A stretch of 64,000 nt of DNA, taken from Acidobacteriota bacterium. Lineage in GTDB: Bacteria > Acidobacteriota > Terriglobia > Versatilivoradales > Versatilivoraceae. A program made the translations under genes and the position numbers. Below are positions 1 to 63,880 of the stretch, one piece after another. Below the pieces are notes generated by a model that saw nothing but the letters and a program-made list of their open reading frames with translations, did not search any database and was not told where the DNA came from. How positions within the stretch are numbered: position 1 is the stretch's first letter; each line of letters begins with the position of its first letter. The stretch spans positions 27,732 through 91,731 of the forward strand of contig JBFMEW010000016.1 of the NCBI GenBank assembly GCA_040753175.1. The letters run 5' to 3'.

Positions 1-190
1 CTGGCCCACGAGCTACGTCGGGCGCGCTGAATTCGACCGAAGCCCTCGCTCTGAATTTCTTCCAAGACCGGCGGAAAGAGCGTGCCGCTCTCTGTCGTGG
101 ATTGGCCTGGACCGACACCGCTTGGTGTCGGGTGTTCGGCAAGGGAGCTGCCGGCTTGGCGGCGGCATCGTCTCCCATGAGGAGGCTGGC

Positions 191-19367: not shown

Positions 19368-20465
19368 CTATCGAGCGAACCCGGTCGTCGAGAACCAGTG
19401 CCGGGTTCGGTTACAGATCGAACAAACCGACAACATGACCGGCACCTCGATTAAAACGCCAACGACCGTTGCCAGGGCTGCTCCCGAGCCTGGCCCGAAT
19501 AGGGAAATGGCGGTGGCCACCGCCAGCTCAAAGAAGTTGCTGGCCCCGATCAGCGCGCCCGGCGCCGCCACCGCATAGGGCACTTTGAACCAATGCATCA
19601 GAAAGTAGGTGAGCGACGAGTTGAAATAAACCTGGATCAGGATGGGAATTGCTATGAACAGGACATGAACCGACTTACTGGTGAGGTTATCCGCTTGGAA
19701 CCCGAAGATCAGGACCAAAGTTGCCAGCAAAGCCAGCATGCTGGCAGGTGCAAACCGGGGCAACAGCACCTCCTCAAACCATGTGGCCCCGCGCTTTCGA
19801 ATGAACCAAGATCTTAAGGCGATGCCGATCGCCAGGGGAATAACGATGAAGACAATCACCGAGTAGAGCAGTACCTGAAAGGGCACTTCCAGTGAGGAGG
19901 CGCCGCTCACCAGGAACCGGACGATGGGCGCAAAGAGGAAGAGCATGATCAAGTCATTGAGGGACACCTGCACCAAAGTATAGGCAGGGTCGCCGTGCGT
20001 GAGATAGCTCCAGACAAAGACCATCGCGGTACAAGGCGCGGCGGCCAGGATGATGCATCCGGCAATGTATTGGTCGGCATCCGAAGTGGGGATCCAGGTA
20101 GAAGATACCCAACGGAAGAAAATCCAGGCAATGAGCGCCATGGAAAACGGTTTCACCAGCCAGTTTACAAAGAGCGTCACCAACAGCCCGCGCGGACGCT
20201 GGCCTACATTTCGAATCGTGGCAAAGTCGACCTTCATCATCATAGGAATGATCATCAACCAAATCAGGACAGCGATGGGACCGTTGATCTGGCTTCCTTT
20301 GCCGAACTCCAGGCGTCTGAGGCCGTCCACAGCCCCAGGCAACATTTTGCCGATCAGGACACCCACCACCATGCAGGCTCCGACCCAGAGGCTAAGGTAG
20401 CGTTCAAATGGGTTTAAGCGCCTGGTCGATTCCTCAGCTTCGAGCAAACCAGATTTCAGATTCAT
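19368..20465 (-). CDS. acr3: Arsenite efflux permease, ACR3 family
   Basis: N-terminus LNPFERYLSLWVGACMVVGVLIG and about 10 TM helices typical of ACR3. Its ATG overlaps the arsA stop as ATGA. Confidence 0.88.
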   Translation of the reverse strand: MNLKSGLLEAEESTRRLNPFERYLSLWVGACMVVGVLIGKMLPGAVDGLRRLEFGKGSQINGPIAVLIWLMIIPMMMKVDFATIRNVGQRPRGLLVTLFVNWLVKPFSMALIAWIFFRWVSSTWIPTSDADQYIAGCIILAAAPCTAMVFVWSYLTHGDPAYTLVQVSLNDLIMLFLFAPIVRFLVSGASSLEVPFQVLLYSVIVFIVIPLAIGIALRSWFIRKRGATWFEEVLLPRFAPASMLALLATLVLIFGFQADNLTSKSVHVLFIAIPILIQVYFNSSLTYFLMHWFKVPYAVAAPGALIGASNFFELAVATAISLFGPGSGAALATVVGVLIEVPVMLSVCSICNRTRHWFSTTGFAR

Positions 20466-22249
20466 TTCAGCTCCACTGAGTGTTTTACGAGTTCCCGCAA
20501 GCGTACCGGCCCCTTCGGCACTTGCGCCTTCCAGGAAATCAAAGCCACGTGCTGTGCCAGCTGCTGGTGTACTTCCGACAGGTAAGGCAGCTCCCGGAGG
20601 CCGCGCTCGACCAGGACCGGGTCGTGAAAGCGGCTTCCAGAGAAGCTCTGGTTTACGACCCAGGCAAAGGGCTCAATGCCGGCTCGGCGCAGGTCATCCT
20701 GCAAGCGGGCAGCCTCATGAACCGCGGTGGCTTCCGGCAATGTCACCATCAGGACTCGTGTGAATTCCGGGTCGCGCAGTCTTGGCAGCAGCCGTCGCAC
20801 AGCCTCAGGTCCGCTGCCCAGCGTGCGCGACACTTCACGGTGGTAAGCTTCCGCTGCGTCCAGCAGAAGAAGAGTGTGCCCGGTAGGGGCGGTATCGAGG
20901 ACCACAAAACCATTTTCCCCCTCCGCCACCGTGCTGGCAAAAGCCCGAAACACGGCAATCTCTTCAGTGCAGGGAGAACGCAGGTCCTCCTCAAGCAGCG
21001 CGCGGCCCTGGGCGTCGAGGCCGGCCCCCGCGCCGGCGAGGACTTCTTCTGAGTACGTCCGCACTTCGGCTATTGGATCGATGCGGCTGACCCGCAAGCT
21101 TGGAATCTCACCATCCAGGGCAGCGGTGAGGTGGGCGGCCGGATCGGTCGTGCTGAGGTGAACCCGGTGTCCACGATAAGCCAGTTCGGCAGCTATGGCC
21201 GCGGCCACGGTAGTTTTTCCCACACCGCCCTTGCCCATCGTCATGACCACACCTCGTCCAGCGCTCTCGATCTTGTCAACCAATGCGGACAAAGAAGAGC
21301 CGAAACCGCCGTGGCGTTGCTCCCCGAGGGCGCTGCCGGCAGGCACTGCCGGCCGGCTTGGGTCAAAGACGTGCCGGAGAGCGGGCACGCCAATTGGGGC
21401 AAACGCCAACAAGGGCACTTCGATGCGTGGCAGTGCCGCCAACTCCTCTGGCATTGCCGCCAGGGCCTGCCTCCCTCTGGCCTCCAGCGCCGTCGCGGCC
21501 TGGTCTCCAGGAGTGCTTGCAACGAAGACTCCGTTCACCACCAGTACCTGGCGGGCAATCCCCATTGCTCGAAGCTCACGGCGCGTGCGTTCGGCCTCCG
21601 TCAAGGCCGATGGCTCGGGTCGAGCCACCAAAATCAGCGTTGTTGTTGAGGGGTCGGTTAGAGCATTGAGGCTGGCCTCGTACAGCGATCTCTGGTTCTG
21701 AAGGCCGGACAAGGGGCCCAGGCACGAAGTTCCAGTGATGCTCGACGCCATAAACCCCGTCCACGCAGCCGGCAGTTTCAACAGTCGCAGCGTGTGACCC
21801 GTGGGCGCGGTATCGAACAACACATGATCGTAGCCATCTGTGGCTGCGGGGTCCGCCAGCAAACGGGTGAACTGATCAAAGGCCGCAATCTCCACGGTAC
21901 AAGCGCCTGACAGTTGCTCTTCCATGCTGACAATGGCATCCTCGGGCAGGACTCCCCGAAACGGGCCGACCAGGTTCTCACGATAGTTTTGCGCTGCCTC
22001 GTCGGGATCGATATTGAGCGCAAACAGTCCCGAGGCGCCGCCAACGGCGGTGGGTGTGGAGCCCAGATGCGTTCCGAGCACCTCATCCAGATTGGAGGCG
22101 GGATCGGTGCTCACCAGTAAAACGCGCTTGCCTCTGTCCGCAAGCGCCAGCGCCGTGGCACACGCCAGAGAGGTTTTTCCCACACCGCCTTTGCCCGTAA
22201 AAAAGAGAACACGTGTGGCTTCATTGACGATGTCGGCGGTGCGGCTCAT
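20462..22249 (-). CDS. arsA: Arsenite-transporting ATPase ArsA (two-domain)
   Basis: Two P-loops (GKGGVGKTS, GKGGVGKTT) and two DTAPTGHTL signal-transduction motifs. ATG at 22249 overlaps the arsD stop as ATGA. The ORF-track GTG at 22258 is less likely. Confidence 0.93.
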   Translation of the reverse strand: MSRTADIVNEATRVLFFTGKGGVGKTSLACATALALADRGKRVLLVSTDPASNLDEVLGTHLGSTPTAVGGASGLFALNIDPDEAAQNYRENLVGPFRGVLPEDAIVSMEEQLSGACTVEIAAFDQFTRLLADPAATDGYDHVLFDTAPTGHTLRLLKLPAAWTGFMASSITGTSCLGPLSGLQNQRSLYEASLNALTDPSTTTLILVARPEPSALTEAERTRRELRAMGIARQVLVVNGVFVASTPGDQAATALEARGRQALAAMPEELAALPRIEVPLLAFAPIGVPALRHVFDPSRPAVPAGSALGEQRHGGFGSSLSALVDKIESAGRGVVMTMGKGGVGKTTVAAAIAAELAYRGHRVHLSTTDPAAHLTAALDGEIPSLRVSRIDPIAEVRTYSEEVLAGAGAGLDAQGRALLEEDLRSPCTEEIAVFRAFASTVAEGENGFVVLDTAPTGHTLLLLDAAEAYHREVSRTLGSGPEAVRRLLPRLRDPEFTRVLMVTLPEATAVHEAARLQDDLRRAGIEPFAWVVNQSFSGSRFHDPVLVERGLRELPYLSEVHQQLAQHVALISWKAQVPKGPVRLRELVKHSVELK

Positions 22250-22851
22250 TCGCAGCACTCCTTCTCAGCCGCGCAGTCGTTTCCCTGCAGGATCAAAAGG
22301 CTTGCGGCCTCTTGTTCCTTGCTTTGAAGGTAACGGTCGGCCAGTTCCAGGATGGAGCGTGCCGGTGTCTCCTTGACGTTTCGTGCTGTCTTCACCGCAC
22401 GCGCAATGTCTTCGAGTGATATGCCCAACTGGCGTGCCTTGTCGAAGTGATAGCGGAAACAGGGCTCGCAGTGCGAAGCGATAGCTGCACCTATGGCCAC
22501 CAATTCGGTGACCGTTTCAGTGTAGAGAGTGGGTGGCTCGCTGCCAGGGAGGCCGGTCAGCTGAGACAGCTCCTCGCGCGTGGGGTATCTCGTTCGAACT
22601 CGCGGCTGGCCGTCGACAAGGATCAACGGGAGCACGGAAACCCCTTCTTCCGCCAGAGCCGATTTGACCACTGGGTTGGCCGCAAAAGCGTGGGGCTGCT
22701 GAGAAAGGTTATACCTTTCGACCTTGATCCCGCAATCGACGAGCCACTGCAAATCGGCAGCAAAGCGGGACAGTACCGGATCTACGGCTGGACCGCATAC
22801 CCCGCTGGAACAGCACATAGGGGGATCAAAGACCTCCACTTTCTTTGTCAT
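22246..22851 (-). CDS. arsD: ArsD metallochaperone fused to an AhpD/carboxymuconolactone-decarboxylase-like CxxC domain
   Basis: The N-terminal roughly 105 aa read VEVFDPPMCCSSGVCGP..DLQWL..ERYNLSQQP, which resembles E. coli ArsD including the Cys12/13/18 equivalents. The C-terminal ELVAIGAAIASHCEPCFRYHFDKARQLGISLEDI matches the AhpD-like core. The tail ends CAAEKECCE. ATG at 22851 lies 9 nt after GGAAGG. Confidence 0.8.
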   Translation of the reverse strand: MTKKVEVFDPPMCCSSGVCGPAVDPVLSRFAADLQWLVDCGIKVERYNLSQQPHAFAANPVVKSALAEEGVSVLPLILVDGQPRVRTRYPTREELSQLTGLPGSEPPTLYTETVTELVAIGAAIASHCEPCFRYHFDKARQLGISLEDIARAVKTARNVKETPARSILELADRYLQSKEQEAASLLILQGNDCAAEKECCE

Positions 22852-22992
22852 CGGATTCATCCTTCCGGTTTTGACGGACAAGCGACAAGCCTCTAAGATT
22901 CGAACGTCCGGCTACCGACCAGACGGTCGGGTGCGGAAAAACAGCGCGTTCATCCCGGGAGTGAGGCGATCGAATGGAGCGCTATTGAGTTT

Positions 22993-23250
22993 TTAAGGGA
23001 ATACCGCGAAGTTGCGAACGGCCAGCTCCATCGTGATCTTACCCTGCGACAGCTTGAAACAACTTTCGAACTCCGGGCAGCCGGTGCACTCGTCCCACTG
23101 CCTTAAATCCATCCCAACTTCGCGCCGAGTGACGGCCATTCCAGGCCGTTCCAGCCGCAGGCTGAAGACTTTGCCCTTGTGGGTGACGTTTGACTCGCCG
23201 CTTTCAATTGATGGGAAGAGCTTGCCGTAACATTCCTGATGCTTTTCCAT
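22993..23250 (-). CDS. Small Cys-rich hypothetical protein, first gene of the ars operon
   Basis: 85-aa ORF beginning MEKHQECYGKLFP, preceded by AAGGGGGG. It has four Cys, at C7 and in DECTGCPEFESC. It sits between the AT-rich promoter-like region and arsD. I recognise no family. Confidence 0.55.
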   Translation of the reverse strand: MEKHQECYGKLFPSIESGESNVTHKGKVFSLRLERPGMAVTRREVGMDLRQWDECTGCPEFESCFKLSQGKITMELAVRNFAVFP

Positions 23251-23279
23251 GAGCGATCCCCCCTTTTTGGGTCTTCCAT

Positions 23280-23340
23280 CGACGTTGGGCCATGCTACGT
23301 CATATCTTAATATGGATATAGGCATATACATTTCCATTCC
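23280..23340 (-). promoter_or_regulatory. AT-rich promoter/operator candidate for the small ORF-arsD-arsA-acr3 unit
   Basis: An AT-rich island in a GC-rich genome, 50-90 nt upstream of the start at 23250. It holds an imperfect dyad ATATC-N8-GATAT (23302-23319) and repeated CATAT units. Confidence 0.4.
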
Positions 23341-23583
23341 GGTCGACCGTGGGGGCATGGGTTTATCGTCCTGGGAGCTTCGGTCAGGCGGGTCATATCG
23401 CCCGCCAGTGGGCAAAATTCACCGACCTTGGTCGAGCGCCATGCTTGGCTTTCGCCGCCTGAGAGCCTCGGGTTGAATCAGTGGTGATCCGTCTTAGTGA
23501 GAGACCGTACCAGGTTTTCCCAGGGATGAAGGATCTGTTGCGGGGGTGCCTGCAAGATCGTACCGCTCCCCGGTTAGAACAAG

Positions 23584-23988
23584 TCACTCGGCGGAAGAGG
23601 AGGACAGGGTTGCGGAATGACTGGCTTTTGGAAAAGCGCGTGACTGAACGATCTGACAGTCGCCGTCTTTGACGGCTTCTCGCAGTGTCATCAGGTCTCG
23701 GCCAAAAGTCTTCTCCTTGCGAAAGACGTCTTTGAGAAACTGGACCAAAATTTGATTGATTGGTGATTCTTGGGCAAGGAGCCTGTAAAAGATGCGATAG
23801 CCATCCCGGCGATCTGAGACCAGCCCGGCAGTCTTGAGGTAGGACAAATGTCGGGACACCAGTGGCTGGGACATGTCAAGAACGTGCTGGATGTCGCAAA
23901 CACACAACTCGCCATAGAACAACAGATTAAGAATCCGCAACCGTGTTGGATCACTCAGGGATCTGAGTTTCTTGACCAGGTCTTTCAT
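23584..23988 (-). CDS. arsR: ArsR/SmtB family metalloregulator
   Basis: LSDPTRLRILNLL helix, ELCVCDI metalloid-binding motif and SQPLVSRHLSYLKTAGLV recognition helix. ATG at 23988 lies 8 nt after GGGAGG. The longer ORF-track start at 24018 has no SD. Confidence 0.88.
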   Translation of the reverse strand: MKDLVKKLRSLSDPTRLRILNLLFYGELCVCDIQHVLDMSQPLVSRHLSYLKTAGLVSDRRDGYRIFYRLLAQESPINQILVQFLKDVFRKEKTFGRDLMTLREAVKDGDCQIVQSRAFPKASHSATLSSSSAE

Positions 23989-24181
23989 TCCGCGGGCCTC
24001 CCGTACCTCGTCAGCCATTCATGGTCGTATTATACATGGGCCCTCCCCGAGTCGGTCATCGTTCATCTGCTCATTACCGGACTCGGGTCTTCGTACCGGC
24101 CCGGCAGCCAGCAAGGGTGGGGGCGACCGGGCGTAAAAGGGGAGCCACTTTGGCTGTTGACGCACATCGAGTGAAATAGTA

Positions 24182-24191
24182 TATTCGAATA
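24182..24191. promoter_or_regulatory. Perfect 10-bp palindrome TATTCGAATA in an AT-rich stretch
   Basis: Read directly from the sequence. It lies between arsR (minus strand) and ORF 24230 (plus strand) and could be an operator for either. No functional evidence. Confidence 0.25.
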
Positions 24192-24229
24192 GACACATAA
24201 ACAAATGACCTTCAGGCGGCCGATCGGCG

Positions 24230-24631
24230 ATGAGACCATTCTTCTATTCAACTTCGGATTGGACCCACCAAGAAAGCCTGATCGTGCTGGTTGTGATGGT
24301 CATAGGATGCGCGGGCTGCGATACTTCATACGTCCGACCCTGCCGGACCGATTTGAGGCCGGAGGCAGCTAGACTGATTTCAGACAGGTATGGAGCGCAC
24401 GTGATCCCCCGGCTTTCTCAGTTTGGACCGATGGGACCGCTACGGTCGCGGTTTGGAGGGTTCGTACCTTCCTATTGTGAACTCGATGTCAACGGAGATA
24501 ACTACGGCGACTTCGTATCGCTTGCCTTCGTTTCAGGGGAAGTCTTAGCTGTTATCGACCTGCGCAGTTCAGAAGGCGGCTTCAAATTGGAGGAAATTTG
24601 TAGAGGATTTCCCGTGAGCAGAAAAAAATGA
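24230..24631 (+). CDS. Hypothetical protein, possible lipoprotein
   Basis: 133-aa ORF in a lower-GC stretch (about 48% on one counted line). It has a lipobox-like LVVMVIGCAGC, no SD and no recognisable domain. Confidence 0.3.
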   Translation: MRPFFYSTSDWTHQESLIVLVVMVIGCAGCDTSYVRPCRTDLRPEAARLISDRYGAHVIPRLSQFGPMGPLRSRFGGFVPSYCELDVNGDNYGDFVSLAFVSGEVLAVIDLRSSEGGFKLEEICRGFPVSRKK

Positions 24632-24984
24632 AGCATATCTTTTGACCGCCCTTGCAGGCAGGCACTACAAATGGGATGCCACACCTATCGACCTGCCTGG
24701 GACGGGTTTTTATCTTGGGACGCTACAGCCTGAATTCTTGTTCTATTGGAACGGCACGGGCCTAAAGCGGCTGATCAGCCGGGATTGATGTTGCGCCAGC
24801 TACCTGCGTTTTGGGTGTCACGGTTCTGGTCGAGATTGGGGCTGACCTAATTAGGTGATCGAGCTCCAACGGAGGCTGTGTTAGCGGATCCGGCAACGGC
24901 GTGGGAAGCCAGTCGTCTCCACCGCAAGGATCAGAGACGAAACCAAAGGTAACAACGCACCTTTCTTCGGGAGGCCCGGGTGAT

Positions 24985-25407
24985 ATGAACAAACCAGATC
25001 GTGAACCCAGACGACTCCTCTTTGTCTGTGTTGAGAACTCGAACCGCAGCCAAATGGCTGAAGCCTTCGCAAGAATCCACGGAGGGCCGGAAGTCGAAGC
25101 CTACAGCGCCGGTTCTCGGCCCTCAGGACAAGTTAATCCCAAAGCTGTGGAGGCCATGCGCGAGCTCGACTATGATCTGTCGTGCCATCGGTCGAAGTCG
25201 CTCAAGGAAATTCCAAACGTCGAATACGATTTCGCCATCACCATGGGCTGCGGTGACGAGTGCCCCTACGTTCGGGCCAAGACCCGCCTGGAGTGGAACA
25301 TTCCCGATCCCAAAGGGATGCTGCCCGGGCAGTTTAATCGGATCCGGGATTTAATCGAATCCAGGGTGGTCGAACTGTTGGCAACGCTGGAATCCGTGAA
25401 GCGATGA
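24985..25407 (+). CDS. arsC: Arsenate reductase, LMW-PTP (thioredoxin-coupled type) family
   Basis: CX5R P-loop in LLFVCVENSNRSQMAE and a downstream Cys pair in ITMGCGDECPY. ATG at 24985 is preceded by GGGAGG. Confidence 0.88.
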   Translation: MNKPDREPRRLLFVCVENSNRSQMAEAFARIHGGPEVEAYSAGSRPSGQVNPKAVEAMRELDYDLSCHRSKSLKEIPNVEYDFAITMGCGDECPYVRAKTRLEWNIPDPKGMLPGQFNRIRDLIESRVVELLATLESVKR

Positions 25408-50004: not shown

Positions 50005-53000
50005 CTAGAAAACGATTCTCAGCCCGAATTGAATCTGGCGGGCCGAGGTGGTGGTGGCGCGAATTCGACCCAAGGAAGCCAAGGGCTGCTCGTTGTCGGT
50101 CTGACCCGTGAAGGCAATGAGCGAAGGCGGCGCGAAGTTGGAGCGGTTGAACAAGTTGAAAATTTCGGTGCGGAACTGAATACGCGTGTCCTCTCCCAAG
50201 CGAGCCCACTCGAAGTTCTTCACGACCGAAAAGTCGAAGGTTCGCAGGTCGGGTCCGACAAAGGTTCCCCGGCCCAGCGTTCCGAGTGTTCCGGCAGCCT
50301 GAAGCTGGAATGCGGACGGATCGAAGTACTGATCCGGCCCGCCCAGGACAGCGCTCTCATGGGTCCGGCCTGCGGCCAGGCCGGCCCGATCGGAACCGAT
50401 CCCGGGGCCGAGCGAAGGGGCCCACAGCGAGCGAGAGCGGTTTCGCTGGACAAAGACCGTGAGCGGACTGCCGCTGCGCACCGTTCCGATTCCCGACAGC
50501 TGCCAGCCTCCCAGCCAGCGCCGCGCGGCGCCCAGCGAATCGCGCCCGAAGGGCAACTCCCAGGTGAAATTGGCGACCCAATTGTGTTTGGCATGGAAAT
50601 CCGAAAGGCCGCGATTGTAGAAGAAGCCCGGGAACTCCGGAAAGGCCGAGGTTGTACCGTTGGTGGCGTCCGAGAAAAAAGTGGAGGCCTGTGTGTTGTC
50701 GATGTTGCGGGAAAAGGTGTAGGACGATTGAAAACTGACGCCCTGCGACCAGCGCTTTCGCAGCTCGAGGATCATGGCGTTGTACCAGGAATCGCCGTCG
50801 CTCCGTTTCAACTCGATGGTGGTAAAGGCCGGGTTGGGCCGCTGCAGGTTGGGTGCAAAAAACAGCCTTCCATCGGCCAGTCGCTCCGGCACGGGCACGT
50901 TGACATCTCCACTGCGCAGAAGGTGGATGCCGCGGGACCCTGCGTAGCCGACAGTCAGAAGTGTGTCGTACCAGAATTCACGCTGGAGGTTGAGGTTCCA
51001 GACATGCACGTTTGGATTCTTCAGGTTCCATTCCACCGGCCGGATCGAGTTCCCTTGTCCGCGCTCGAAAGGCGGCAACGGAAAGGAAGGGTTCCGGATG
51101 ATGATGCGTGGCGTGGCGGGAGGATTGGTCACGGTCACAATCAGGTTCTGCTGGTTGTTGGTGTTAAAGAACAGCCCGTATCCGCCGCGCAGCGCGGTCC
51201 GTCCGTCACCGGCGGCGTCCCAAGCGAAGCCGAAGCGGGGTGAAATGTTGCGATAGGTCGGATTCCGATAAAGGGGACCGACGGTCGGCTCGCTGTCAGT
51301 GAGGCGGATCAACGACGAATCCCGACCATAAAGATCCACCGGCATCGTCGAGAACTCGTAGCGCAATCCCAGGTTAAGCTGGAATCGCGGGTGAACGCGG
51401 ATGCTGTCCTGGAGATAAAAGCCGGTCAACGTGAAGCGCCAGTAGCGGTCGAGCGCCCCGTCGGGTCTCAATCCGATGAACAACTGAGGCCGGTTCAGAA
51501 GGAAGTCGCGTAGTCCCGCGAAGTTGTAAATGCCCAGCGAGAAAGTGGGATTGAACATGTTGTCCTGATAGCGCTCCGCCAGGCCACCGAACTTGAGGAG
51601 GTGACGTCCACGGGTGTAGGTGAGCCCGTCTTCCACGCCAAACACATTTTGAGTCAGCTTGACATTGACGGAAGTTTGCGGACCGAAGCGCGGCAGCCCG
51701 CCGATGTCGATAGCCCCTACCAATTGTTGCCCCGGCACGAAAGGCTGAAGGGGAGAGGACAGCTCAGCCTGAACGTCCTGACCGATGCGCGTCCGACTGA
51801 AGTTGAGGCGCAGATCGTTGAGAAGGCGAGGAGAGAAGATCCGGCGATACTCCGCCGTGAAGAACTGGTTGCGGGAAAGGAACTCCCGAGGGAACTGGGG
51901 GAAGTCGGTCGGAAGCTTCTGCTGGGCGTCGTCAATGGTGTAGCGACCGAAGAATTGGTGGCCGGGACCGAAGTTGTGATCCACCCGACCCTGCAAAAAG
52001 TCTTCATCCAATCGCTGGCTGAACAGGAAATTGTGGCGTGCCAGGCCACTGCGAGCCAGCTGCAGGTCAGGAACCGGATCGTTGGGACTGGGATAAGCCT
52101 CCAGGTAGGAGCGCACCGCGGGATGCACGCCTACTTCGTCGATCACGGTCGGGTCGGTGGGGTTGGGAAGCAGGCCCCGACGTGCGTTTGCATCCGGAAC
52201 CAGCGTGGAGATGGTCTTCCCGAGTCCCTCGCGCAGAGCCTCGTACCCCACAAAGAAGAAGGTTCGCTCGCGCCGGAAAGGCCCACCCAGAGTGCCGCCG
52301 AATTGGTTCCGCCGAAACTCGGGCTTGCGGGCCTGATCGAAAAAGTTGCGGGCATCCAGGTTGTCGTTGCGATGGAATTGATAGAGGCTGCCGTGCAGCT
52401 CGTTGGTTCCGGACTTGGTTAATGCGTTGATCTGACCGCCCGAGTTACGGCCGAATTCGGCGCTGTAGGCGTTCACCTCCACCCGGAATTCGCGCACGGT
52501 TTCCATGCCCAGAGCCGTGCTGGCTGCGCTTCCGGCCGGGCCGTTGGTAAAGTCGTTCTGGGGCGTGCCGTCCAGGAGATAAACGTTCGAGCGGGGATCC
52601 TGTCCGTTGATGCTGACGCCGAGCCCATGCGCGACAACCGATCCGCCGTCGCGATGCGGAAAAGGAATCACGCCGGGCTGCAGCAAGGCCAAATCCGAAT
52701 AATTACGACCGTTGAGCGGCAAATCGCGAATAAGACCTTCACTGACCATGTAGCTCAGCTCGGAGGTCTGCGTGTTGACGACGGGAACCTCCCCAACCAC
52801 ATTGAGCACCAGGTCCACGCCGCCGACCTCGAGTCGCAGATCCAAGGCAGCCACGGCTCCAACCTCAAGGCGTACTCCCTGCCGCACGAGCGGTCGGAAT
52901 CCCGGATGGGTGACTCGGATTTCATACAGACCCACCGGGAGCGAAGAAAAAATAAAGCGCCCTTCCACGCTGGTGACGTTCGAGCGTGACAAACCGGTTT

Positions 53001-53205
53001 CACTGTGAACGGCCGTAACGCTTGCTTCGGAGACCAATCCGCCGCTTTGGTCCTGAACGGTGCCGGCGATGGTGGCGCTGGTTTGGGCCGAGGAAGGAAT
53101 GACTGAAACGGGCAAAAAAAACATCAGCCCAGCGGCTGCCGCCCGCAAGGAGAAGGTTTGAAGCCTGGGGGAAAGAGTCATGATAGAAACCTGTTCTTTC
53201 GGCAT
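50005..53205 (-). CDS. TonB-dependent receptor with N-terminal carboxypeptidase-regulatory-like domain
   Basis: A signal peptide is followed by [31 protein letters not shown] (CarboxypepD_reg), then a plug and a very long beta-barrel ending [10 protein letters not shown]. An alternative ATG is at 53181. Confidence 0.88.
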
Positions 53206-53404: not shown

Positions 53405-54748
53405 ATGAGTTCGTCAACACTCGACACTGGCAAGATCCGCCTGACGCGCGTTCAGTGGCTTATTTGTGTGATCGCGTCGATTGGCTTCGCCTTCGATATT
53501 TATGAACTGCTCATGTTGCCGCTGATTGTGCGGCCCGCCCTTCTGGAGTTGATCAATGCCCGTCCGGGTTCCGCGGAATTCAACAGTTGGGTGGGGATGC
53601 TTTTTTACGTTCCGGCCCTGGCGGGCGGCATTTTCGGACTGCTGGGCGGATATCTGACCGATCGCCTGGGACGCCGCCGAGTGCTGGTGTGGAGCATCCT
53701 GCTTTATGCTTTTTCGGCCTGCGCCGCCGGTTACACCACTTCCATCCAGTGGCTGCTGGTTTTGCGGTGCACCACCTTTATCGGTGTGTGCGTGGAGTTC
53801 GTGGCGGCCGTTGCCTGGCTGGCCGAACTCTTCCCTCATCCCAAGCAGCGCGAGGCGGTACTGGGTTACACTCAAGCCTTCTCTTCTTTGGGTGGCCTGA
53901 TGGTGACCGGCGCCTATTACGTGGCCGTCACCTACGCGGACTGGCTACCGGCTATTCACGGCGGCCACCAGGCCTGGCGCTATACGTTGATCTCGGGTGT
54001 GATTCCAGCCATCCCTCTCATCCTGATTCGGCCGTTTCTGCCGGAATCGCCCACCTGGCAGCAAAAGAAAGAGGCCGGAACGCTCAAGCGGCCGAGTTTC
54101 GCCGAGTTGTTCCGCCCCGAGTTCCGCCGCACCACGCTGGTGACAGCCCTCATGTTTGCGTGCAGTTATGGAGCCGCCTTCGGCGCCATCCAGCACACTC
54201 CTCGCATCGTTCCGGGTTTGCCGGAAGTTCGAGACCTGCCTCGGCCGGCGCAGGAACAGATCGTCAGCACCGTACAGTTGTATCAGGAGCTGGGAGGACT
54301 GGCCGGTCGCTTTCTCCTGGCCTTTTTGGCCGTGCGGATGCTTCAAAGACGGAAGCTGCTGCGAGTGTTTCAGGTTCCAGGCTTGCTGTTCATGCCCCTG
54401 GTTTTCCTCTATCCGGCCAACGACAATCTGGAGTTGTTGAAGTGGGGGATTCTGGCTGCGGGCCTGGTCACCGTGGCGCAGTTCAGCTTCTGGGGGAATT
54501 ACCTGCCCCGAGTCTATCCGACCCACCTGCGCGGCACGGGCGAGAGCTTTGCAGCCAATATCGGCGGGCGGATGATCGGCACCTCGGCGGCTTTGCTCAC
54601 CACCCAACTGGCCAACGTGATGCCGGGAACCGCACCTTCCATGAAGCTGGCCTATGCCGCCGCCGCGGTGGCCTTTGCCGTGTACCTGGTGGGATTTGTC
54701 GCCAGTTTCTGGCTACCGGAACCTGAGAAGGCGGAGCTGCCGGAGTAA
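53405..54748 (+). CDS. MFS transporter
   Basis: 12 hydrophobic segments and the MFS loop motif GGYLTDRLGRRRVL. SD is GAGGAA. Confidence 0.88.
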   Translation: MSSSTLDTGKIRLTRVQWLICVIASIGFAFDIYELLMLPLIVRPALLELINARPGSAEFNSWVGMLFYVPALAGGIFGLLGGYLTDRLGRRRVLVWSILLYAFSACAAGYTTSIQWLLVLRCTTFIGVCVEFVAAVAWLAELFPHPKQREAVLGYTQAFSSLGGLMVTGAYYVAVTYADWLPAIHGGHQAWRYTLISGVIPAIPLILIRPFLPESPTWQQKKEAGTLKRPSFAELFRPEFRRTTLVTALMFACSYGAAFGAIQHTPRIVPGLPEVRDLPRPAQEQIVSTVQLYQELGGLAGRFLLAFLAVRMLQRRKLLRVFQVPGLLFMPLVFLYPANDNLELLKWGILAAGLVTVAQFSFWGNYLPRVYPTHLRGTGESFAANIGGRMIGTSAALLTTQLANVMPGTAPSMKLAYAAAAVAFAVYLVGFVASFWLPEPEKAELPE

Positions 54749-54768
54749 TCTTCAGCGTATAACGATAT

Positions 54769-56310
54769 ATGGTAGCTCCCATAGTATTCCTTAGTTCAAC
54801 AATTCGCGATCTAAGGTACTTGCGGTCCCATCTCGAGCGATTCATCAAGGGTTTGGGTTTCAACCCGGTTCTGTCTGAAAGAGGCGACGTCCCGTACATC
54901 AACGGCTTATCGGCCGAAGAGTCCTGTCTAGATCAAATTGAGCGGGACGCCGACATTTTCTTATTGATTATTGGGGCGCGATATGGGTCCCGGTCTGATC
55001 TTTCCCACGAAGGGCTTCCCAATCAGTATGTCAGCGTAACGAGACAGGAGTTCAGGCAGGCAGTCGCGAAGGGCATCCCGATCTATGCCCTCTTTGACAA
55101 GGAGATTGCATACTCCGCGCGCCGGAGAGGATCGATCAACGCCCCCGCTGAGACCGAGGAACAGCTGATCTTCGACTTCATCCAGGAAGTTGAGAAGACA
55201 AAATGCTTCCGATTCGAGTTTAACGATCCAACTGAAATCGAGGACTGGCTCAAGAAACAATGGGCGGGTCACTATCGTTCTCTCATGCTCGATCACCGAG
55301 CAGGGCGGCCTCGTGCTAGCCTTTCCCCGGGCTCAGAACCCATAACTTACTGGCTGTCATCCAAGATTCCAATGGTGATTCACTGTGGTTTAACAGAGCT
55401 ACTCGGCGAAGTGACGCTGACAAAGAGGAGCTTTCCAGCAAACCATAATCAAAAAACATCCGCTGCCACCATCGACGTTTTGTTTGCGGATGTTGCTGTC
55501 GCGAATCCGTTCGAGGGTTGGCAGGAACTTGACTTCCTAACCGGAACAATACCAGCTACGAACTCCTTATCTGATTCAGTTCAGCTGCATTTCAAGGGGG
55601 GATTCCTGCGCACTGAGTTTGCCCACAGGCTCAGAGGGCGTGTCATAAACACTAGGGATGGAGGTGTGGTTACGATTGAAATACCGGCTGGAATCACGCT
55701 TGAGGACGGCAGTCAGATTTCAGTGAAGAACGTGTTGGCCAGAACTACAGGGAAGGCAGTTGGAGCCCAAATAACCGCCACTGTTCAATGTCAGCCACCT
55801 GAGAGCAGCTTGTTTGTCAACGGAACTACGTGCTCAGTTGCATTGTGTGGTTTGTATCTTCAACTCGCGACGCAGCCAGCTCAGATAAACTCGAACGAAC
55901 AGGTTGCTCATCCGGTGCTGTATTTGGAAGAAGCGCTGGTCAATGAGTCGAATTTGGAACCGAGGAAGGGTGTTAGAGTGCACTTCGTGCTATCGGACCT
56001 TGCTGAACACGTCAGCATCGTATGGCCTGAAATAGGAGTCGAAACTCGCTATGGCAACAGTCAATTACAGAAGATCTCAGCGTCGAATAACGATGCAGTC
56101 TATGAGTTCATGTGGAACAAGAACGATCAGACAGCTGACCAAATCCGACTTTTTCGGCTCGACTTGGAGGCTCGCTTGAACGTCCCGATCCGAGGAGGAA
56201 CATGCACAGTTCAGTGCCAGCTTTATCCGCCTGGAATATCCCCGCTGATTCCGCGGTTTGAGCATCCGTTGCTACCTGACCCGGGATGTTACCTACTGAG
56301 ATTTCTGTAG
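54769..56310 (+). CDS. DUF4062-like N-terminal domain protein with uncharacterised, internally duplicated C-terminal region
   Basis: 513-aa ORF in a lower-GC stretch. Residues 1-115 carry IVFLSSTIRDL, DADIFLLIIGARYGS, YVSVTRQEF and GIPIYALF, in the motif order I recall for Pfam DUF4062. Residues about 200-490 are beta-rich with no recognisable motif. ATG lies 20 nt after the MFS stop with no SD. Confidence 0.7.
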   Translation: MVAPIVFLSSTIRDLRYLRSHLERFIKGLGFNPVLSERGDVPYINGLSAEESCLDQIERDADIFLLIIGARYGSRSDLSHEGLPNQYVSVTRQEFRQAVAKGIPIYALFDKEIAYSARRRGSINAPAETEEQLIFDFIQEVEKTKCFRFEFNDPTEIEDWLKKQWAGHYRSLMLDHRAGRPRASLSPGSEPITYWLSSKIPMVIHCGLTELLGEVTLTKRSFPANHNQKTSAATIDVLFADVAVANPFEGWQELDFLTGTIPATNSLSDSVQLHFKGGFLRTEFAHRLRGRVINTRDGGVVTIEIPAGITLEDGSQISVKNVLARTTGKAVGAQITATVQCQPPESSLFVNGTTCSVALCGLYLQLATQPAQINSNEQVAHPVLYLEEALVNESNLEPRKGVRVHFVLSDLAEHVSIVWPEIGVETRYGNSQLQKISASNNDAVYEFMWNKNDQTADQIRLFRLDLEARLNVPIRGGTCTVQCQLYPPGISPLIPRFEHPLLPDPGCYLLRFL

Positions 56311-56314
56311 TTGA

Positions 56315-56342
56315 AGGCGTTTGACGCCTGGCTGGTTTTTTC
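56315..56342 (+). terminator. Weak rho-independent terminator candidate
   Basis: Hairpin AGGCG-TTTGA-CGCCT (56315-56329) is followed after 6 nt by a T6 run (56336-56341), just after the stop of ORF 54769-56310. The stem is short. Confidence 0.3.
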
Positions 56343-56410
56343 TTCGACTATGTCTTAAGAGCCAAGTCTGCTTAGACACAGTTATGAGATTCAACAAGGT
56401 GAAGATCGGC

Positions 56411-56599
56411 ATGAAGCGGGTTTCGACGGGGTATGCCGTGTACGAGGAGTGGTACCGGGATGGACAGCTCGTTTCAAGCACAGAATTGGGAATGATCTTC
56501 CGCAATGCCTTCGAGGCTCGCCGCGGTATGGAAGAGCTGGCCCGCGTCGTCCGGCGGAGGGAACCAGATGTGGCTGTCGAGTTTGACCGTGCAGCCTGA
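56411..56599 (+). CDS. Small hypothetical protein downstream of the DUF4062-like gene
   Basis: 62-aa ORF MKRVSTGYAVYEEWYRDGQLV..EELARVVRRREPDV with AGGTGA 9 nt upstream. A longer version starts at 56384 and the ORF-track version at 56321. No family recognised. Confidence 0.3.
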   Translation: MKRVSTGYAVYEEWYRDGQLVSSTELGMIFRNAFEARRGMEELARVVRRREPDVAVEFDRAA

Positions 56600-56713
56600 A
56601 CTGACCCAACCCCAGTGACTCGGGAATCACGTGAGGAACACCGTGCAGTGTGGTTCTTGCAGAGCCCTTCCAATCCAGTTTCCCGATTTCCAGATCTCCG
56701 CTTCGGTGTGACC

Positions 56714-57904
56714 CTATCCCCTCCGGGCGGACAGCACTTCCTTCAAACGTTGAACGATGCGTTCCGGGTCGCCCTCCTGGAGCGTCTCCGGAAAAATAAC
56801 GAGCCGTCCGCTTGCCGCCAGGCTCTCGTACACCGCAATGATGGGGTCTCCCTCCTGGAGGGCGTTGATCACGTCCCAGGCCGTCAGGCCTGTTTTGAGG
56901 GAGTCGACCTGGATCTGTGCTTCGGGGACCGGCCGGCCGCCGTGGCTTGGAAAGACATGAGTGGTCTCGATTCCGCTGATTCTCTCCAGACCCGAGACGA
57001 TCGCCTGGATCCGATCTTTCCACAGCTGCAGCTCCGCCTGCAGGTCCCGCTTCTGGTACAGCTGAAGGGCGGTGATGAGTCCTGCAATCTCTTCCTTGGC
57101 GGCTTTGAACCCGCGGCCCAACCCGTGGTGCGGGGGGCCTTTCAGCACTCCTTCAGCAATGAGGTGGCGAAAGGGCCAGGTTTCCGGAAATACATCCATG
57201 TCCTGCTGCTGCAGGATGGCTGAAAGAATCAAGGGCTTCTTTCCGCACAGAATGCCGGTTGATTGAGGCCCCTGGATATGCTTGCCTCCGCTGAAGGCCA
57301 CCAGGTCAGCTCCCTCGGCAAGGTACTTCCTGAGGTTCTCCCGAGGTGGCAGGTCGGCGGCAGCGTCAACGATGACCGGCACACCTTTCCGGTGAGCGAT
57401 CTCAGTCACTGTGGTCAACGGCAAACCCTGGTTCCCAAAGCCCGCTAGAAAGAACACAGCGGCGGTTCGATCGCTGAGAGCGTCTTCCAATTCGTAGGGA
57501 AAGGTAACGTAGTTGTAGCCGACCTCCGCGATCTCCGCGCCTGCCACACGGAGCGCACGATCGTAGTCGTTGCGGTGCAGTCGCTGGATGACAATCTGGT
57601 TTCGCAGCCCGGCGGTGTCCGGCAAAGCATTCATCCGTGACGTGTTCAGTCCGGCCAGGCAGGCCGCCGCCGCCAGCGTCAGGGCGGCAGCGGCGCCTGA
57701 GGTGACCATTCCGGCTTCGGCGCCGGTGGCCGAAGCGATAACTCCGCTGGCTGCCTCCTGCAAGTCCTCGATTCTGACAAAAGACCGCGAGGCTTCCTGC
57801 ATGACGGCCAAGACCTCGGGAGCCATGAGACATCCGCCCACCTTGGTGCTGTAGCTGCGTCCGTTGATGACCGTGCGGACGCCCAGACGTCGATAAATAC
57901 TCAT
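56714..57904 (-). CDS. SelA-like PLP-dependent enzyme (DgaE / L-seryl-tRNA(Sec) selenium transferase-related)
   Basis: N-terminus VINGRSYSTKVGGCLMAPEVLAVM and the PLP-lysine region VAFSGGKHIQGPQSTGIL. Its ATG overlaps the PHP stop as ATGA. Confidence 0.75.
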   Translation of the reverse strand: MSIYRRLGVRTVINGRSYSTKVGGCLMAPEVLAVMQEASRSFVRIEDLQEAASGVIASATGAEAGMVTSGAAAALTLAAAACLAGLNTSRMNALPDTAGLRNQIVIQRLHRNDYDRALRVAGAEIAEVGYNYVTFPYELEDALSDRTAAVFFLAGFGNQGLPLTTVTEIAHRKGVPVIVDAAADLPPRENLRKYLAEGADLVAFSGGKHIQGPQSTGILCGKKPLILSAILQQQDMDVFPETWPFRHLIAEGVLKGPPHHGLGRGFKAAKEEIAGLITALQLYQKRDLQAELQLWKDRIQAIVSGLERISGIETTHVFPSHGGRPVPEAQIQVDSLKTGLTAWDVINALQEGDPIIAVYESLAASGRLVIFPETLQEGDPERIVQRLKEVLSARRG

Positions 57905-61355: not shown

Positions 61356-62330
61356 TCAGCCGGTTCCGGCCAAAGTGTAAGCCTGCTCGATCAACCGCTG
61401 ACTGACCAGCGATTCCTCGGGACGAGGATCAGGGCGGCGGCCCTGGGAAACGGCCGCCACAAACTCCTCGAGAGCTGCCCTCATGCCCACCAGAGCCCGC
61501 ACCGCGATGGAGGACCCTTTGGCGAAGCAATCTTGCTGGCGGAGCGACTGCGCGGCCTGCAGTTTCCAACCACCCCAGCAATCGACGCGCAGAGTTCCTC
61601 GTGTTCCATACAAGGTGATCTCGCCCTCGAGGTCTTGGCCTTCCCTTCTCCAATTCAAAAGGACTTGAACCGGCGTATCGTCTCCCGCGGTGAGTGAGAA
61701 AACCGCCGTATCCTCGACGTCGCCGAGAGCCTGGGAACACCCAAACCAGGCCGAACGCAGTGACAGCGGCTTGCCCACGATCCAGGCGACGTGATCGATG
61801 AGATGAATTCCGCTGGTCAGCCCGACTCCTCCCCCGGCTTGAGTTCGGGAGAGCATCCAGGCGGGCAGCGACCCGAAGAGCCCGATGCTTTCCACCACCG
61901 TGTCGGTGACGGCCAGGACCTGGCCGATGGCTCCGTTTTGAACCAGCCGCCGGGCCTCAATGATCGGAGGCATGAAGCGGTGCGTCATTTCGACCATGAG
62001 CACCTTGGAAGCCCGTTCAGCCAGTCGGCAGAGTCGCTCTCCAGCCGCCACGCTGACGGCCAGAGGCTTCTCGACCAGCACATGTTTGCCGGCATCTAGG
62101 GCGTCAGCGGCCACTTGCTCGTGCAGAAAGTGGGGCAGGCAAACCGTGACAGCCTGAATGGCCTCCTCCCGCAGCAAGTCATGATAATCTTCAAAGACCG
62201 GTAGTGACAGATCGGCCGTTCGCGCCGGGTCCGTTTCCGAAACAGCTGCCAGTTTTGCTCCGGGAAGGGTACTGAGGGCACGGGCATGCTGTTGACCCGT
62301 GTAACCATAGCCGATGATGCCCAGATTCAC
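61356..62330 (-). CDS. Gfo/Idh/MocA family oxidoreductase
   Basis: Rossmann N-terminus NLGIIGYGYTGQQHA and an EKPL motif (LVEKPLAVS). GTG start is preceded by GGGAGGG. Confidence 0.85.
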   Translation of the reverse strand: MNLGIIGYGYTGQQHARALSTLPGAKLAAVSETDPARTADLSLPVFEDYHDLLREEAIQAVTVCLPHFLHEQVAADALDAGKHVLVEKPLAVSVAAGERLCRLAERASKVLMVEMTHRFMPPIIEARRLVQNGAIGQVLAVTDTVVESIGLFGSLPAWMLSRTQAGGGVGLTSGIHLIDHVAWIVGKPLSLRSAWFGCSQALGDVEDTAVFSLTAGDDTPVQVLLNWRREGQDLEGEITLYGTRGTLRVDCWGGWKLQAAQSLRQQDCFAKGSSIAVRALVGMRAALEEFVAAVSQGRRPDPRPEESLVSQRLIEQAYTLAGTG

Positions 62331-62519
62331 GCACCCTCCCTATATTCGAACCGAGGTTACTGAGACCGAAGCCGTTCGCCCGTCTTCGAGCTGATTCGGT
62401 GGGATAGGGTCTTAGCAAACTCTGGGATTCCTTGTGTGTCAAGAAGAAATCGGCCAACGTCACCTTGGCCGGGAGTGTTCAGACGGAAAAATCGAAGGAC
62501 AAAGCCGAGGGAGAAACTC

Positions 62520-63347
62520 ATGCGGATCGGAGGATGCTCGTTTGCTTTTGGTCCCAAGCCGTTGGCTGAGGCTGCTCGCATCCTGAAGGGCTTTGGGTTT
62601 CAGACGGTGGATCTCGGCGCCTGCCTGGGCAACACGCAGGTCAATCCGTTTGAAGCTTCAGGCCATCCGCAGGAAACAGCGGACACCGTCAACCGCTGCC
62701 TGGATGACCTGGAATTGGAGCGGGGCGAGTGTTTCGTTTTGGATTTCGGCGAGCCCCTCAATCATCCGGATCCTGAAGTACGCCGCGAAACCCAAACGCG
62801 ATTCAAGCCTCTGGCTCGTTTCGCCCGCCTTGCCGGCTTTCGAAGTGTCATGCTGATCCCCGGCATCGTCCACCACTCACTCGGCAGGGAAAAATCCTAC
62901 GAGCTTGCGGCCACCGAACTGGGAGTCTTGTGTCGGATCGCCGAGGATGAAGGGGTCCTCTTGAACATCGAGCCCTGCGAGCCCTCGGTGATCCAGGATC
63001 CCGGCGACGTTGCGCGGATGTGCGAAGAGGTCGCGGGATTGGGGTTAACACTCGACTATTCGCACTTCATCGATCCCGGTTACCGCCAATCCGAGGTCGA
63101 AGTCCTGCATCGTTATGCCCGGCATTTCCATGCCCGCCAGGCTGCACCGGGCAAAAGAGTGGAGACGGTGGCACAAGGGACGATCGACTTCAAGCGGGTC
63201 GTTTCGCTGCTGGAGCAGGCGCGCTATGAAGGGATTGTTGCCGTCGAATATGTGGAATGCGAGACCACCCGGCAGTGTGGCGTGGACGTGTGGCAGGAAA
63301 CTCCGCTGATGCGTGCGGAGCTGGTCAGGTTGTCGTTCGAGTCGTAG
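62520..63347 (+). CDS. Sugar phosphate isomerase/epimerase (xylose isomerase-like TIM barrel)
   Basis: ATG at 62520 is preceded by GAGGGAG. The pattern GFQTVDLG .. LNIEP .. LDYSHF .. VAVEY is typical of AP_endonuc_2/TIM-barrel isomerases. Confidence 0.78.
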   Translation: MRIGGCSFAFGPKPLAEAARILKGFGFQTVDLGACLGNTQVNPFEASGHPQETADTVNRCLDDLELERGECFVLDFGEPLNHPDPEVRRETQTRFKPLARFARLAGFRSVMLIPGIVHHSLGREKSYELAATELGVLCRIAEDEGVLLNIEPCEPSVIQDPGDVARMCEEVAGLGLTLDYSHFIDPGYRQSEVEVLHRYARHFHARQAAPGKRVETVAQGTIDFKRVVSLLEQARYEGIVAVEYVECETTRQCGVDVWQETPLMRAELVRLSFES

Positions 63348-63543: not shown

Positions 63544-63880
63544 CCCGGCCTTGAAAGGCCGGGCTAGGTTCAAACGTCGCTACGCGACTCAACTCCGTGC
63601 CGCGTGAGCGGCACGGCGCGGTTAACAGGCCCATGCAATTGGGACTACGGTCTTCGTCCCAACCCGACTCAAACCGTGAGACTGGCACCGCCAGCACAGC
63701 GTCTGAAACCGCCAAGAAGGCAAAGGGAAACACGGCTGTTGCATGGCGGAGAAATTTCTGGCTCCTCTGAATCCAGCGACGGATAGGGATTTGCAGACGC
63801 TGTGCAGAAGGAGCCCTGCAGATACCACTCAATACCAGGCCTTTCACGTGCAAACACTGCTTTGCACGCAACTAACAAAA
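63544..63880. other. Hairpin-dense non-coding region (candidate structured RNA or element end)
   Basis: No credible ORF. Local hairpins: CCCGGCC-TTGAAA-GGCCGGG (63544-63563), GTCGC-TAC-GCGAC (63576-63588), and a 9-bp stem with GTGA loop (63595-63616). Longer-range pairs: a 12-nt pair at 63694-63705 / 63794-63805 enclosing a nested CCGCCA/TGGCGG pair (63709-63714 / 63744-63749). Also the palindrome AGAAATTTCT (63750-63759) and GTGCAAA/TTTGCAC (63848-63867). Confidence 0.4.

Follow-up and report, generated by a model that had tools for sequence, protein, structure and literature searches.

We analysed a 64,000-nucleotide stretch of DNA from an Acidobacteriota bacterium (GenBank assembly GCA_040753175.1, contig JBFMEW010000016.1, positions 27,732 to 91,731; this whole stretch is referred to here as the window) and focused on one gene within it, a complete open reading frame (ORF) at 54769..56310 on the plus strand that starts with ATG and encodes 513 amino acids followed by a stop codon. 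Our data indicate that this gene joins a DUF4062/NIR-type effector domain to a tandem immunoglobulin (Ig)-like module, presumed to be its sensor, and that it represents a new architecture within a kind of system that was already described in 2026. By analogy with the characterised DUF4062 proteins, we consider it likely that the product is a horizontally acquired single-protein abortive-infection NADase with an Ig-like sensor. An initial annotation, made from the nucleotide sequence, had presented the gene as a candidate undescribed defence gene; this holds for the sensor module, which is new, but not for the kind of system to which the gene belongs.

The N-terminal domain is, by sequence, a member of the DUF4062/NIR family (PF13271). 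The Pfam model matches residues 6-98 (54784..55062, plus strand) with E=4.9e-17 and a score of 62.3 bits, compared to a gathering cut-off of 24.7, and the match covers model positions 2-82 of 82, which bears out the DUF4062 call of the initial annotation. The core motifs of the family are found in the window protein as VFLSST..DL, D62-IFLLIIGARYGS, and S89-V-T-R-Q-E94-F. PHROG 15411, whose function is not annotated, matches the same region (E=1.4e-8), and NCBIfam and PADLOC v2 gave no match for this domain. The only solved relative is the TIR/DUF4062 domain of KpSwz (PDB 10wc, 11cq, and 11cv), and the match to 10wc_A has an E-value of 0.029 with a single sequence and 3.7e-6 with a two-sequence profile. 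The deposited chain is KpSwz(15-C, E97A) and reads SFTEK-A-F; its Ala84, which is native residue 97, aligns with E94 of the window protein (SVTRQ-E-F). E94, encoded by the GAG codon at 55048..55050 (plus strand), is the predicted catalytic glutamate and is the Glu of VSVTRQEF that had been proposed for mutation. A Glu is also present in this column in two DUF4062 proteins from viral contigs (SITRQEY and SITQNEI), and E94-F95 fits the 'E-Y' catalytic motif of Evangelion (10.64898/2026.06.25.731849). Furthermore, all positions that are invariant in a five-sequence alignment (A5) are kept in the window protein (F7, S9, S10, T11, D14, R19, E37, D62, G69, G73, S89, T91, and A98).

The region that follows the core, residues ~99-177 (55063..55299, plus strand), is predicted by a low-confidence AlphaFold2 (AF2) model to be helical with one strand, and it ends with LKKQWAG (W165). 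The QWAG motif (residues 164-167) is common to the DUF4062 protein of one viral contig (L085) and, when a 1-nt indel is allowed, to the second gene of the DUF4062 and module kind described below (L104). W165 may be the equivalent of W162 in Eva01 or W176 in KpSwz. The AF2 model of residues 1-190, built from a two-sequence alignment, has a mean confidence (pLDDT) of 54 and a pTM of 0.54, and its predicted order of elements, β-α-β-α, appears compatible with a TIR-like α/β (flavodoxin-like) fold.

DUF4062, since renamed NIR, has been established by three preprints from 2026 as a TIR-like NADase effector in abortive-infection systems made of a single protein (10.64898/2026.05.01.722283, 10.64898/2026.06.25.731849, 10.64898/2026.09.04.749371). 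In the Swarozyc, Evangelion, and NIR systems of these three preprints, defence needs the catalytic Glu (E97 in KpSwz, E108 in PsAvs2, E98 in Vulcan, and E87 in Eva01), which is followed by an aromatic residue, and in Swarozyc and Eva01 defence also needs the auxiliary domain (10.64898/2026.05.01.722283, 10.64898/2026.06.25.731849). Osinski et al. showed that KpSwz is activated by the phage portal via a winged-helix domain carried on helical stalks (10.64898/2026.05.01.722283). Eva01, reported by Ibarra-Chavez et al., consists of one plasmid-borne gene whose product has a short auxiliary tail behind its DUF4062 core; it acts through NAD+ depletion, and phages that escape it carry mutations in recombination genes (10.64898/2026.06.25.731849). 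Le Mouellic et al. identified NIR as the effector in Avs2, in Vulcan, which has HEAT repeats, and in Vesta, which has an alkaline phosphatase partner, and found that NIR genes lie near defence genes in 20% of cases, compared to 3.9% expected (10.64898/2026.09.04.749371). STAND/NACHT NTPases, with which the initial annotation took the domain to be typically associated, are one architecture but only one of several, and neither Pfam nor NCBIfam detects an NTPase in the window protein, as the annotation had noted.

The new part of the gene lies further downstream. A Pro/Ser/Gly/Arg-rich linker of residues ~178-191 (RAGRPRASLSPGSE; 55300..55341, plus strand), which has a pLDDT below 50 in both AF2 models and is unconserved in a 16-sequence alignment (A1), is followed by an all-β module of residues ~192-513 (55342..56307, plus strand), the presumed sensor. 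The initial annotation could not assign the C-terminus to any family. We likewise found no match in Pfam, NCBIfam, or PADLOC for the approximately 400 residues after DUF4062, but the region is not an orphan: an exhaustive HMMER (phmmer) search with residues 170-513 recovered 34 related representative clusters (E=1.6e-33 to 1e-4). This exhaustive search was needed because word-indexed searches with the whole protein and with the N-terminus had returned, apart from the window protein itself, a single DUF4062 protein of 197 aa. Alignment A1 spans the full ~320-aa module, whose motifs are GLTE[LV][LM]GE, IP.G, [FY].F, QLYP, and PRF..PL. The module consists of sub-domain A (~residues 190-365) and sub-domain B (~401-510), which occur separately in some of the homologous clusters.

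The AF2 model of the module, built from the 16 sequences, has a mean pLDDT of 84.9 and a pTM of 0.77, and contains strands only, apart from one 4-residue helix. When compared to the PDB with Foldseek, its top matches were the ectodomains (thigh and calf domains) of integrin alpha-V and alpha-IIb (E ~2e-6), followed by PrgB Ig-like domains, antigen I/II C-terminal domains, CNA-type adhesins, and Gram-positive pilins. These matches have E-values of 1e-6 to 1e-4 with TM-scores of 0.2-0.4, the low TM-scores reflecting differing inter-domain angles. The module is thus confidently modelled as a tandem Ig-like β-sandwich array of the integrin-ectodomain/adhesin type, at the level of fold class only, and in these model comparisons it is without a close solved relative. 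It is also unlike every published DUF4062 auxiliary domain. The window copy keeps 27 of 46 near-invariant columns, compared to 75-98% in other members, and has lost ~14 residues from the TEGF..AFVQ region, making it the most diverged member; this strong divergence fits rapid sensor evolution. We found no sign that the module originates from phages or has a counterpart in them: PHROGs gave no match, BFVD gave generic Ig-like matches only, and an alignment of five secreted members of the family (A6) did not detect the module when scanned against IMG/VR.

We found that the same module follows a second TIR-type effector. Two uncharacterised proteins from metagenomes, P0004 (482 aa) and P0005 (488 aa), contain an N-terminal CAP12/Pycsar-type TIR domain (PF10137, E ~1e-27) and then the module, which matches that of the window protein over its full length (E=1.6e-33 and 4.4e-31; 29-32% identity), so that the order effector, linker, and module is common to all three. 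P0033 is a fragment of the same PF10137 TIR and module kind, and P0004, like the window protein, is encoded by a lone low-GC gene (~0.49 compared to 0.55-0.60) amid housekeeping genes. Because the same sensor follows a second TIR-type effector, we define on sequence grounds a small, previously unrecognised effector-swapping family, in which the module is shared by DUF4062 and PF10137 TIR domains. This swap provides independent support for the effector-plus-sensor organisation that the initial annotation had hypothesised and that has been shown for other DUF4062 proteins in the three preprints above; for the window protein itself we consider this organisation supported by analogy. A comparison of PF10137 TIR and DUF4062 profiles with hhalign, using shallow alignments, gave no signal, and for the view that the swap is one of like for like we therefore rely on published work.

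Three further loci contain an effector next to the module. In two independent short-read assemblies (L105, 1818-3274; L106, 1576-3032), a PF10137 TIR ORF of 171 aa and a module ORF of 293 aa are adjacent in differing frames and are 69% and 54% identical to P0004; they represent a genuine pseudogene with a frameshift or, alternatively, a version split into two genes. The third, a metagenomic locus (L104, 5495-7105; ENA ERZ25039531 contig_40422) contains a second gene of the DUF4062 and module kind, collinear with the window protein. Its N-terminal region is 35% identical to that of the window protein over 187 aa (E=5e-26) and includes SITRREY and, when reconstructed, LQWAGLF. The frame of this gene breaks at GG(G) and AAAAA runs, and the contig naming suggests a long-read assembly; since the breaks lie at homopolymer runs of a likely long-read contig, the real gene is probably intact. 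As in the window, it lies directly downstream of an MFS_1 (major facilitator superfamily, MFS) transporter gene on the same strand. A link in function to the transporter, considered because of this shared adjacency, was rejected, given that the two MFS proteins are not orthologous (29% identity over 103 aa, a superfamily-level similarity only), and the adjacency stands as an unexplained coincidence.

Approximately 20 of the related clusters have a clear signal peptide (...A.AQ) with the module directly after it, as the N-terminal domain of multi-Ig surface proteins. These proteins continue with a ~160-aa unassigned domain or with arrays of TIG, Big_7, He_PIG/ASH, FG-GAP, FIMAH, and DUF11 domains. 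The window protein, P0004, and P0005 have no signal peptide. In a distance tree of the module, the effector-fused copies are basal, the secreted copies form one clade, and the window copy has the longest branch. One of the secreted proteins, P0052 (535 aa; L082 1-9608, NCBI GCA_974759965.1), is encoded between a pseudopilin/T2SSK/PilN/T2SSM/secretin cluster, which lies directly upstream, and a downstream gene for a DUF1573 Ig-like protein, and may be a cargo or fibre-associated protein of machinery resembling type II secretion systems or pili.

Our data support a horizontal acquisition of the gene, as the initial annotation had proposed, and a recent one, on the basis of its composition, a sharp boundary, and its absence from relatives. 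Its G+C content (GC) of 0.511 and third-position GC (GC3) of 0.556 compare with 0.602+-0.018 and 0.716+-0.032 in the other 37 ORFs of at least 200 aa (z=-5.0 for each), and among the 38 long ORFs of the window it is lowest in both GC and GC3 and deviates most in composition. GC3 exceeds GC2, a codon-position pattern typical of coding sequence. The lower GC previously estimated from hand counts was confirmed by a sliding-window run: 400-nt windows have a GC of 0.49-0.54 over 54.6-56.4 kb and of 0.58-0.63 on either side. The low-GC segment (54745..56440, unstranded) is ~1.7 kb long and holds the gene and its putative terminator, with GC of ~0.44-0.56 in 100-nt windows compared to ~0.60-0.66 in the flanks. 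Its left edge is sharp and lies at the stop codon of the upstream MFS transporter gene (54746-54748), while its right edge is gradual (~56,430-56,450).

The neighbouring genes are unrelated to the 513-aa gene, in agreement with the initial annotation. Upstream is the MFS transporter gene, whose stop codon ends at 54748; downstream is a convergent operon that encodes a SelA-like pyridoxal phosphate (PLP) enzyme, a PTE-family hydrolase, and a GH20b-like protein. Orthologs of the MFS transporter, 66-78% identical, were found in 80 loci of metagenome-assembled genomes, mostly from Bryobacterales and other Acidobacteriota, and the 513-aa gene is absent from 80 of 80 of these loci as well as from ~12 related loci anchored on the SelA-like gene. 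In keeping with these orthologs, the host is an acidobacterium and probably Bryobacterales-like. Genes upstream of the MFS gene recur in the MFS-anchored relatives in varied arrangements, including the TonB-dependent receptor at 50005-53205 and genes at 14-19, 32-37, and 48-50 kb; downstream of the MFS gene, nothing in these relatives matches the window. In ~10 metagenomic loci the convergent operon is conserved in synteny, with identities of 63-83%, as a block made up of ORFs 62436-63347 and 61356-62330 and the GH20b-like, PTE-family, and SelA-like genes. This block ends with the SelA-like gene, and beyond that gene the relatives contain no DUF4062 gene. The 513-aa gene thus sits at the junction of two independently conserved blocks, one ending with the MFS gene and the other with the SelA-like gene. 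Because these blocks are not adjacent in relatives, no empty site can be defined, and without a before/after pair the insertion is read from composition together with absence in relatives. Vertical inheritance beside the MFS gene, which the initial annotation had named as the observation that would speak for a housekeeping role, was not seen, given the absence of the gene from the related MFS and SelA loci (0 of 80 MFS loci carry it).

We hypothesize that the DUF4062/NIR domain (residues ~1-177, with E94) would act as a TIR-like NADase that is inactive (autoinhibited) in uninfected cells, and that the Ig-like module (residues ~192-513) would bind a phage-made protein. The latter is likely to be a late structural or assembly (virion) protein, since KpSwz senses the portal, PsAvs2 the terminase, and RorSlfn5 the tail assembly chaperone. 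A multimeric phage target would gather the NADase domains, activating them by oligomerisation, and the resulting NAD+ hydrolysis and depletion would arrest the infected cell before phage release. We infer the NADase activity, the sensing of phage, and the activation by oligomerisation from KpSwz, Eva01, Vulcan, PsAvs2, and RorSlfn5. The last of these offers a precedent for the presumed sensor, as the Ig-like, integrin-ectodomain-like C-terminal domain of the Schlafen defence protein RorSlfn5 (pSlfn5) binds the T5 tail assembly chaperone and sets specificity (PMC13056530).

How the window protein compares to the published systems depends on which part is considered. Like the window protein, Swarozyc KpSwz is a single polypeptide with an N-terminal DUF4062 domain (35% identity over ~96 aligned residues), with its E97 in the column of E94, and with a C-terminal auxiliary domain that KpSwz needs for sensing. 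However, the auxiliary domain of KpSwz is a helical stalk with a winged-helix/helix-turn-helix domain that binds the portal, whereas that of the window protein is a ~320-aa all-β array; the similarity is confined to window residues 6-114, with none beyond ~110, and the host of KpSwz is enterobacterial while the window gene is acidobacterial and lacks a defence island. If Evangelion is taken in its broad sense, as one gene whose DUF4062 core precedes an unannotated auxiliary region, the window gene belongs to it, and it shares the 'E-[YF]' motif, an N-terminal aromatic residue (F7), and, by inference, a Trp near the junction of core and auxiliary region (W165). It departs from the Eva01 lineage, which has a short tail, a plasmid or mobile context, and the Q/W/E Trp, in its large β-rich auxiliary region, its E50, and a chromosomal-looking locus with no plasmid or mobility features. 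Vulcan resembles the window protein in fusing an N-terminal NIR/DUF4062 domain directly to a protein-binding sensor, which in the window protein is presumed, and the concept of NIR as a swappable effector is common to Vulcan, Vesta, PsAvs2, and the window protein. The sensor of Vulcan is made of α-helical HEAT repeats, in contrast to the strands of the window C-terminus. Vesta has a small domain and a phosphatase partner, unlike the window gene, and Avs2 combines TPR with a STAND NTPase, for which there is no room in 513 aa. Since their defining auxiliary domains are absent, the window gene lies outside Swarozyc, the Eva01 lineage, Vulcan, and Avs. RorSlfn5, likened here by fold class, shares with the window protein an effector joined to a C-terminal Ig-like β-sandwich that resembles integrin ectodomains, but its effector is a tRNA nuclease rather than a predicted NADase, and the window array is larger, with two or three domains. 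The PF10137 proteins have a homologous module and a similar size (482-488 aa), and differ in that their effector belongs to another Pfam family.

Several observations weigh against reading the gene as a functional, acquired immune NADase. The Trp of the 'Q/W/E' motif (W51-E52 in Eva01) is replaced by E50 in the window protein, although the next acidic residue is kept. The TIR-like fold of the N-terminal domain is unconfirmed structurally, as Foldseek of the pLDDT-54 model gave no match at E<=0.001 against a PDB copy that may predate the KpSwz entries. The strong divergence of the module could equally reflect relaxed constraint. No mobility genes were found among the neighbours, no tRNA gene at the locus, and no convincing direct or inverted (target-site) repeats around it; the initial annotation had already reported the absence of mobility genes and flanking direct repeats. 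There are no known defence genes nearby and no recognisable defence island, and PADLOC gave no match for the 513-aa protein. Of the related effector-module loci, L105 and L106 are certainly frame-broken, and L104 is also broken, possibly by an assembly artefact.

The absence of a defence island also favours a non-immune role, in which the protein would be a cytoplasmic NAD+- or nucleotide-processing enzyme whose module binds a host ligand or carbohydrate and whose function is tied to the adjacent transporter and carbohydrate genes. Ig-like and adhesin-type sandwiches are frequent glycan binders. Moreover, both known genes that fuse DUF4062 to the module lie directly downstream of a same-strand MFS_1 gene, and in the window the gene follows the MFS stop by only 20 nt and lacks a promoter-like site, which suggests co-transcription. 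We nevertheless regard such a role as unlikely: the two MFS proteins are similar at the superfamily level only and none of the 80 orthologous MFS loci carries the gene, the three TIR-module relatives lack an MFS neighbour, the atypical composition speaks against integration into housekeeping functions, and the DUF4062 proteins characterised so far in bacteria are all immune effectors (the three 2026 preprints). It is, in our view, distinctly unlikely that the gene is an acquired but non-functional or decaying remnant whose frame is open by chance or through recent arrival. An uninterrupted frame of 513 codons at 51% GC would be improbable without selection, AF2 still models the module with confidence (pLDDT 85), neither the catalytic Glu nor any invariant DUF4062 position is lost, and the excess of GC3 over GC2 is a coding-type pattern. 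Such decay would, however, account for the loss of 19 of 46 near-invariant module residues together with the ~14-residue deletion, for the lost Q/W/E Trp, and for the frame disruption in related genes, and the protein is a singleton cluster on one contig among ~15 billion proteins.

The secreted relatives bear on two further readings. NADase toxins are a known class, and an exported or contact-dependent NADase toxin directed against other cells, with the Ig-like module serving in adhesion or delivery, would be in line with the ~20 module-bearing clusters of signal-peptide proteins with Ig-type arrays, one of which adjoins a type II secretion/pilus-like cluster. This appears very improbable for the window protein, which like P0004 and P0005 lacks a signal peptide, carries its enzyme domain at the N-terminus whereas polymorphic toxins carry the toxin C-terminally, and is accompanied neither by adjacent secretion-system genes nor by an evident co-acquired immunity gene (the one small ORF nearby, of 71 aa, is host-like and has no homologs). 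The same homology could mean that the module is an integrated decoy, that is, a copy captured from the exposed N-terminal domain of a family of secreted multi-Ig surface proteins that would serve phages as receptors. The intracellular module would then bait newly made phage receptor-binding proteins and switch on the NADase, and one and the same bait would be combined with interchangeable effectors, either DUF4062 or a PF10137 TIR domain. We hold this, the most novel of the readings considered, to be improbable, its one basis being the homology of the cytoplasmic module to secreted surface proteins; if true, the module would parallel, in bacteria, the integrated decoy domains of plant NLRs.

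With an immune NADase as the preferred reading, the finding is an extension of a very new field rather than a surprise. DUF4062/NIR was recognised only in 2026 as an immune NADase common to bacteria and human TEP1, and its catalogue of sensors is short (winged-helix, short tails, HEAT, STAND-TPR, and a phosphatase partner); the window locus adds a structurally distinct all-β sensor to it. The effector-swapping family is missed by current defence-finding tools, since it has no PADLOC match and the public gene call lacks the effector domain. The homology of the module to a distal domain of secreted surface proteins also provides a testable route to how bacteria invent phage sensors. The locus further extends knowledge of defence in Acidobacteriota, for which, to our knowledge, there is almost no experimentally studied phage-host biology.

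The public gene call (P0001) covers 55372-56310, starts at Met202, and yields a product of 312 aa only, from which the whole DUF4062 domain is missing, as is the first strand of the C-terminal module that is conserved in alignment A1. Because this call loses both, the 513-aa ORF is the correct gene model, and because the public database has only the 312-aa product, the DUF4062 effector is invisible to annotation-based defence screens. Three relatives, P0010, P0011, and P0018, are apparently truncated in the same way. The exact cluster of the window protein has one member. As initially annotated, the ORF begins 20 nt after the MFS stop, and the spacer (54749..54768, plus strand) contains no AGGAGG-like Shine-Dalgarno sequence; a promoter scan of 54500-56900 found 0 sigma-70-like sites. 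Five nt past the stop codon, at 56315..56345 (plus strand), lies a terminator-like hairpin, AGGCGTTTGACGCCT, followed by a T-rich run, identified by consensus matching only. The small ORF of 71 aa (56384..56599, plus strand) separates the gene from the convergent operon and is doubtful as a real gene. Its GC at the three codon positions is 0.61/0.43/0.69, and since this composition is host-like the ORF is probably outside the acquired segment. It has no Pfam or PHROG match and no tblastn match in any related locus, and we rejected it as an immunity or partner gene on the grounds of its host-like composition and lack of homologs.

Two other DUF4062 proteins were observed among the relatives. 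P0002 (L084 3753-4346) carries the DUF4062 domain closest to that of the window protein (38% identity), but Lys replaces the catalytic Glu (SITNIKY); its gene lies near a PhdYeFM/PIN toxin-antitoxin pair and its C-terminus is apparently frame-shifted. The ORF downstream of it was considered as a relative of the module and rejected, being unrelated. The DUF4062 protein of the viral contig mentioned above (L085 1-2378, IMG/VR UViG_2816332556_000001) has 346 aa with a helical C-terminal region, and its gene ends the contig beside a convergent integrase-like ORF, an example of a phage- or prophage-borne DUF4062.

Elsewhere in the window, a PADLOC scan of ten other large proteins gave a kinase-type match for one protein and only weak partial matches for a second (E>=7.8e-11). 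The former is a 911-aa protein (122-2857, plus strand) that matches the PD-T4-6, mad6, and MkoA models with E-values down to 3.5e-72 via residues ~105-390, apparently a generic Ser/Thr kinase domain, and its gene lies more than 50 kb from the DUF4062 gene. An Acido-Lenti-1 small RNA is present at 63544-63589 on the plus strand (Rfam RF01687, 43.6 bits compared to a gathering score of 37), which agrees with an Acidobacteriota host. Finally, inspection of translations by eye suggested an arsenic-resistance-like cluster at 20462-25407, with an ArsD-like ORF (MTKKVEVFDPPMCCSSGVCG...), an ArsR-type helix-turn-helix ORF, and a low-molecular-weight phosphatase/ArsC-like ORF.

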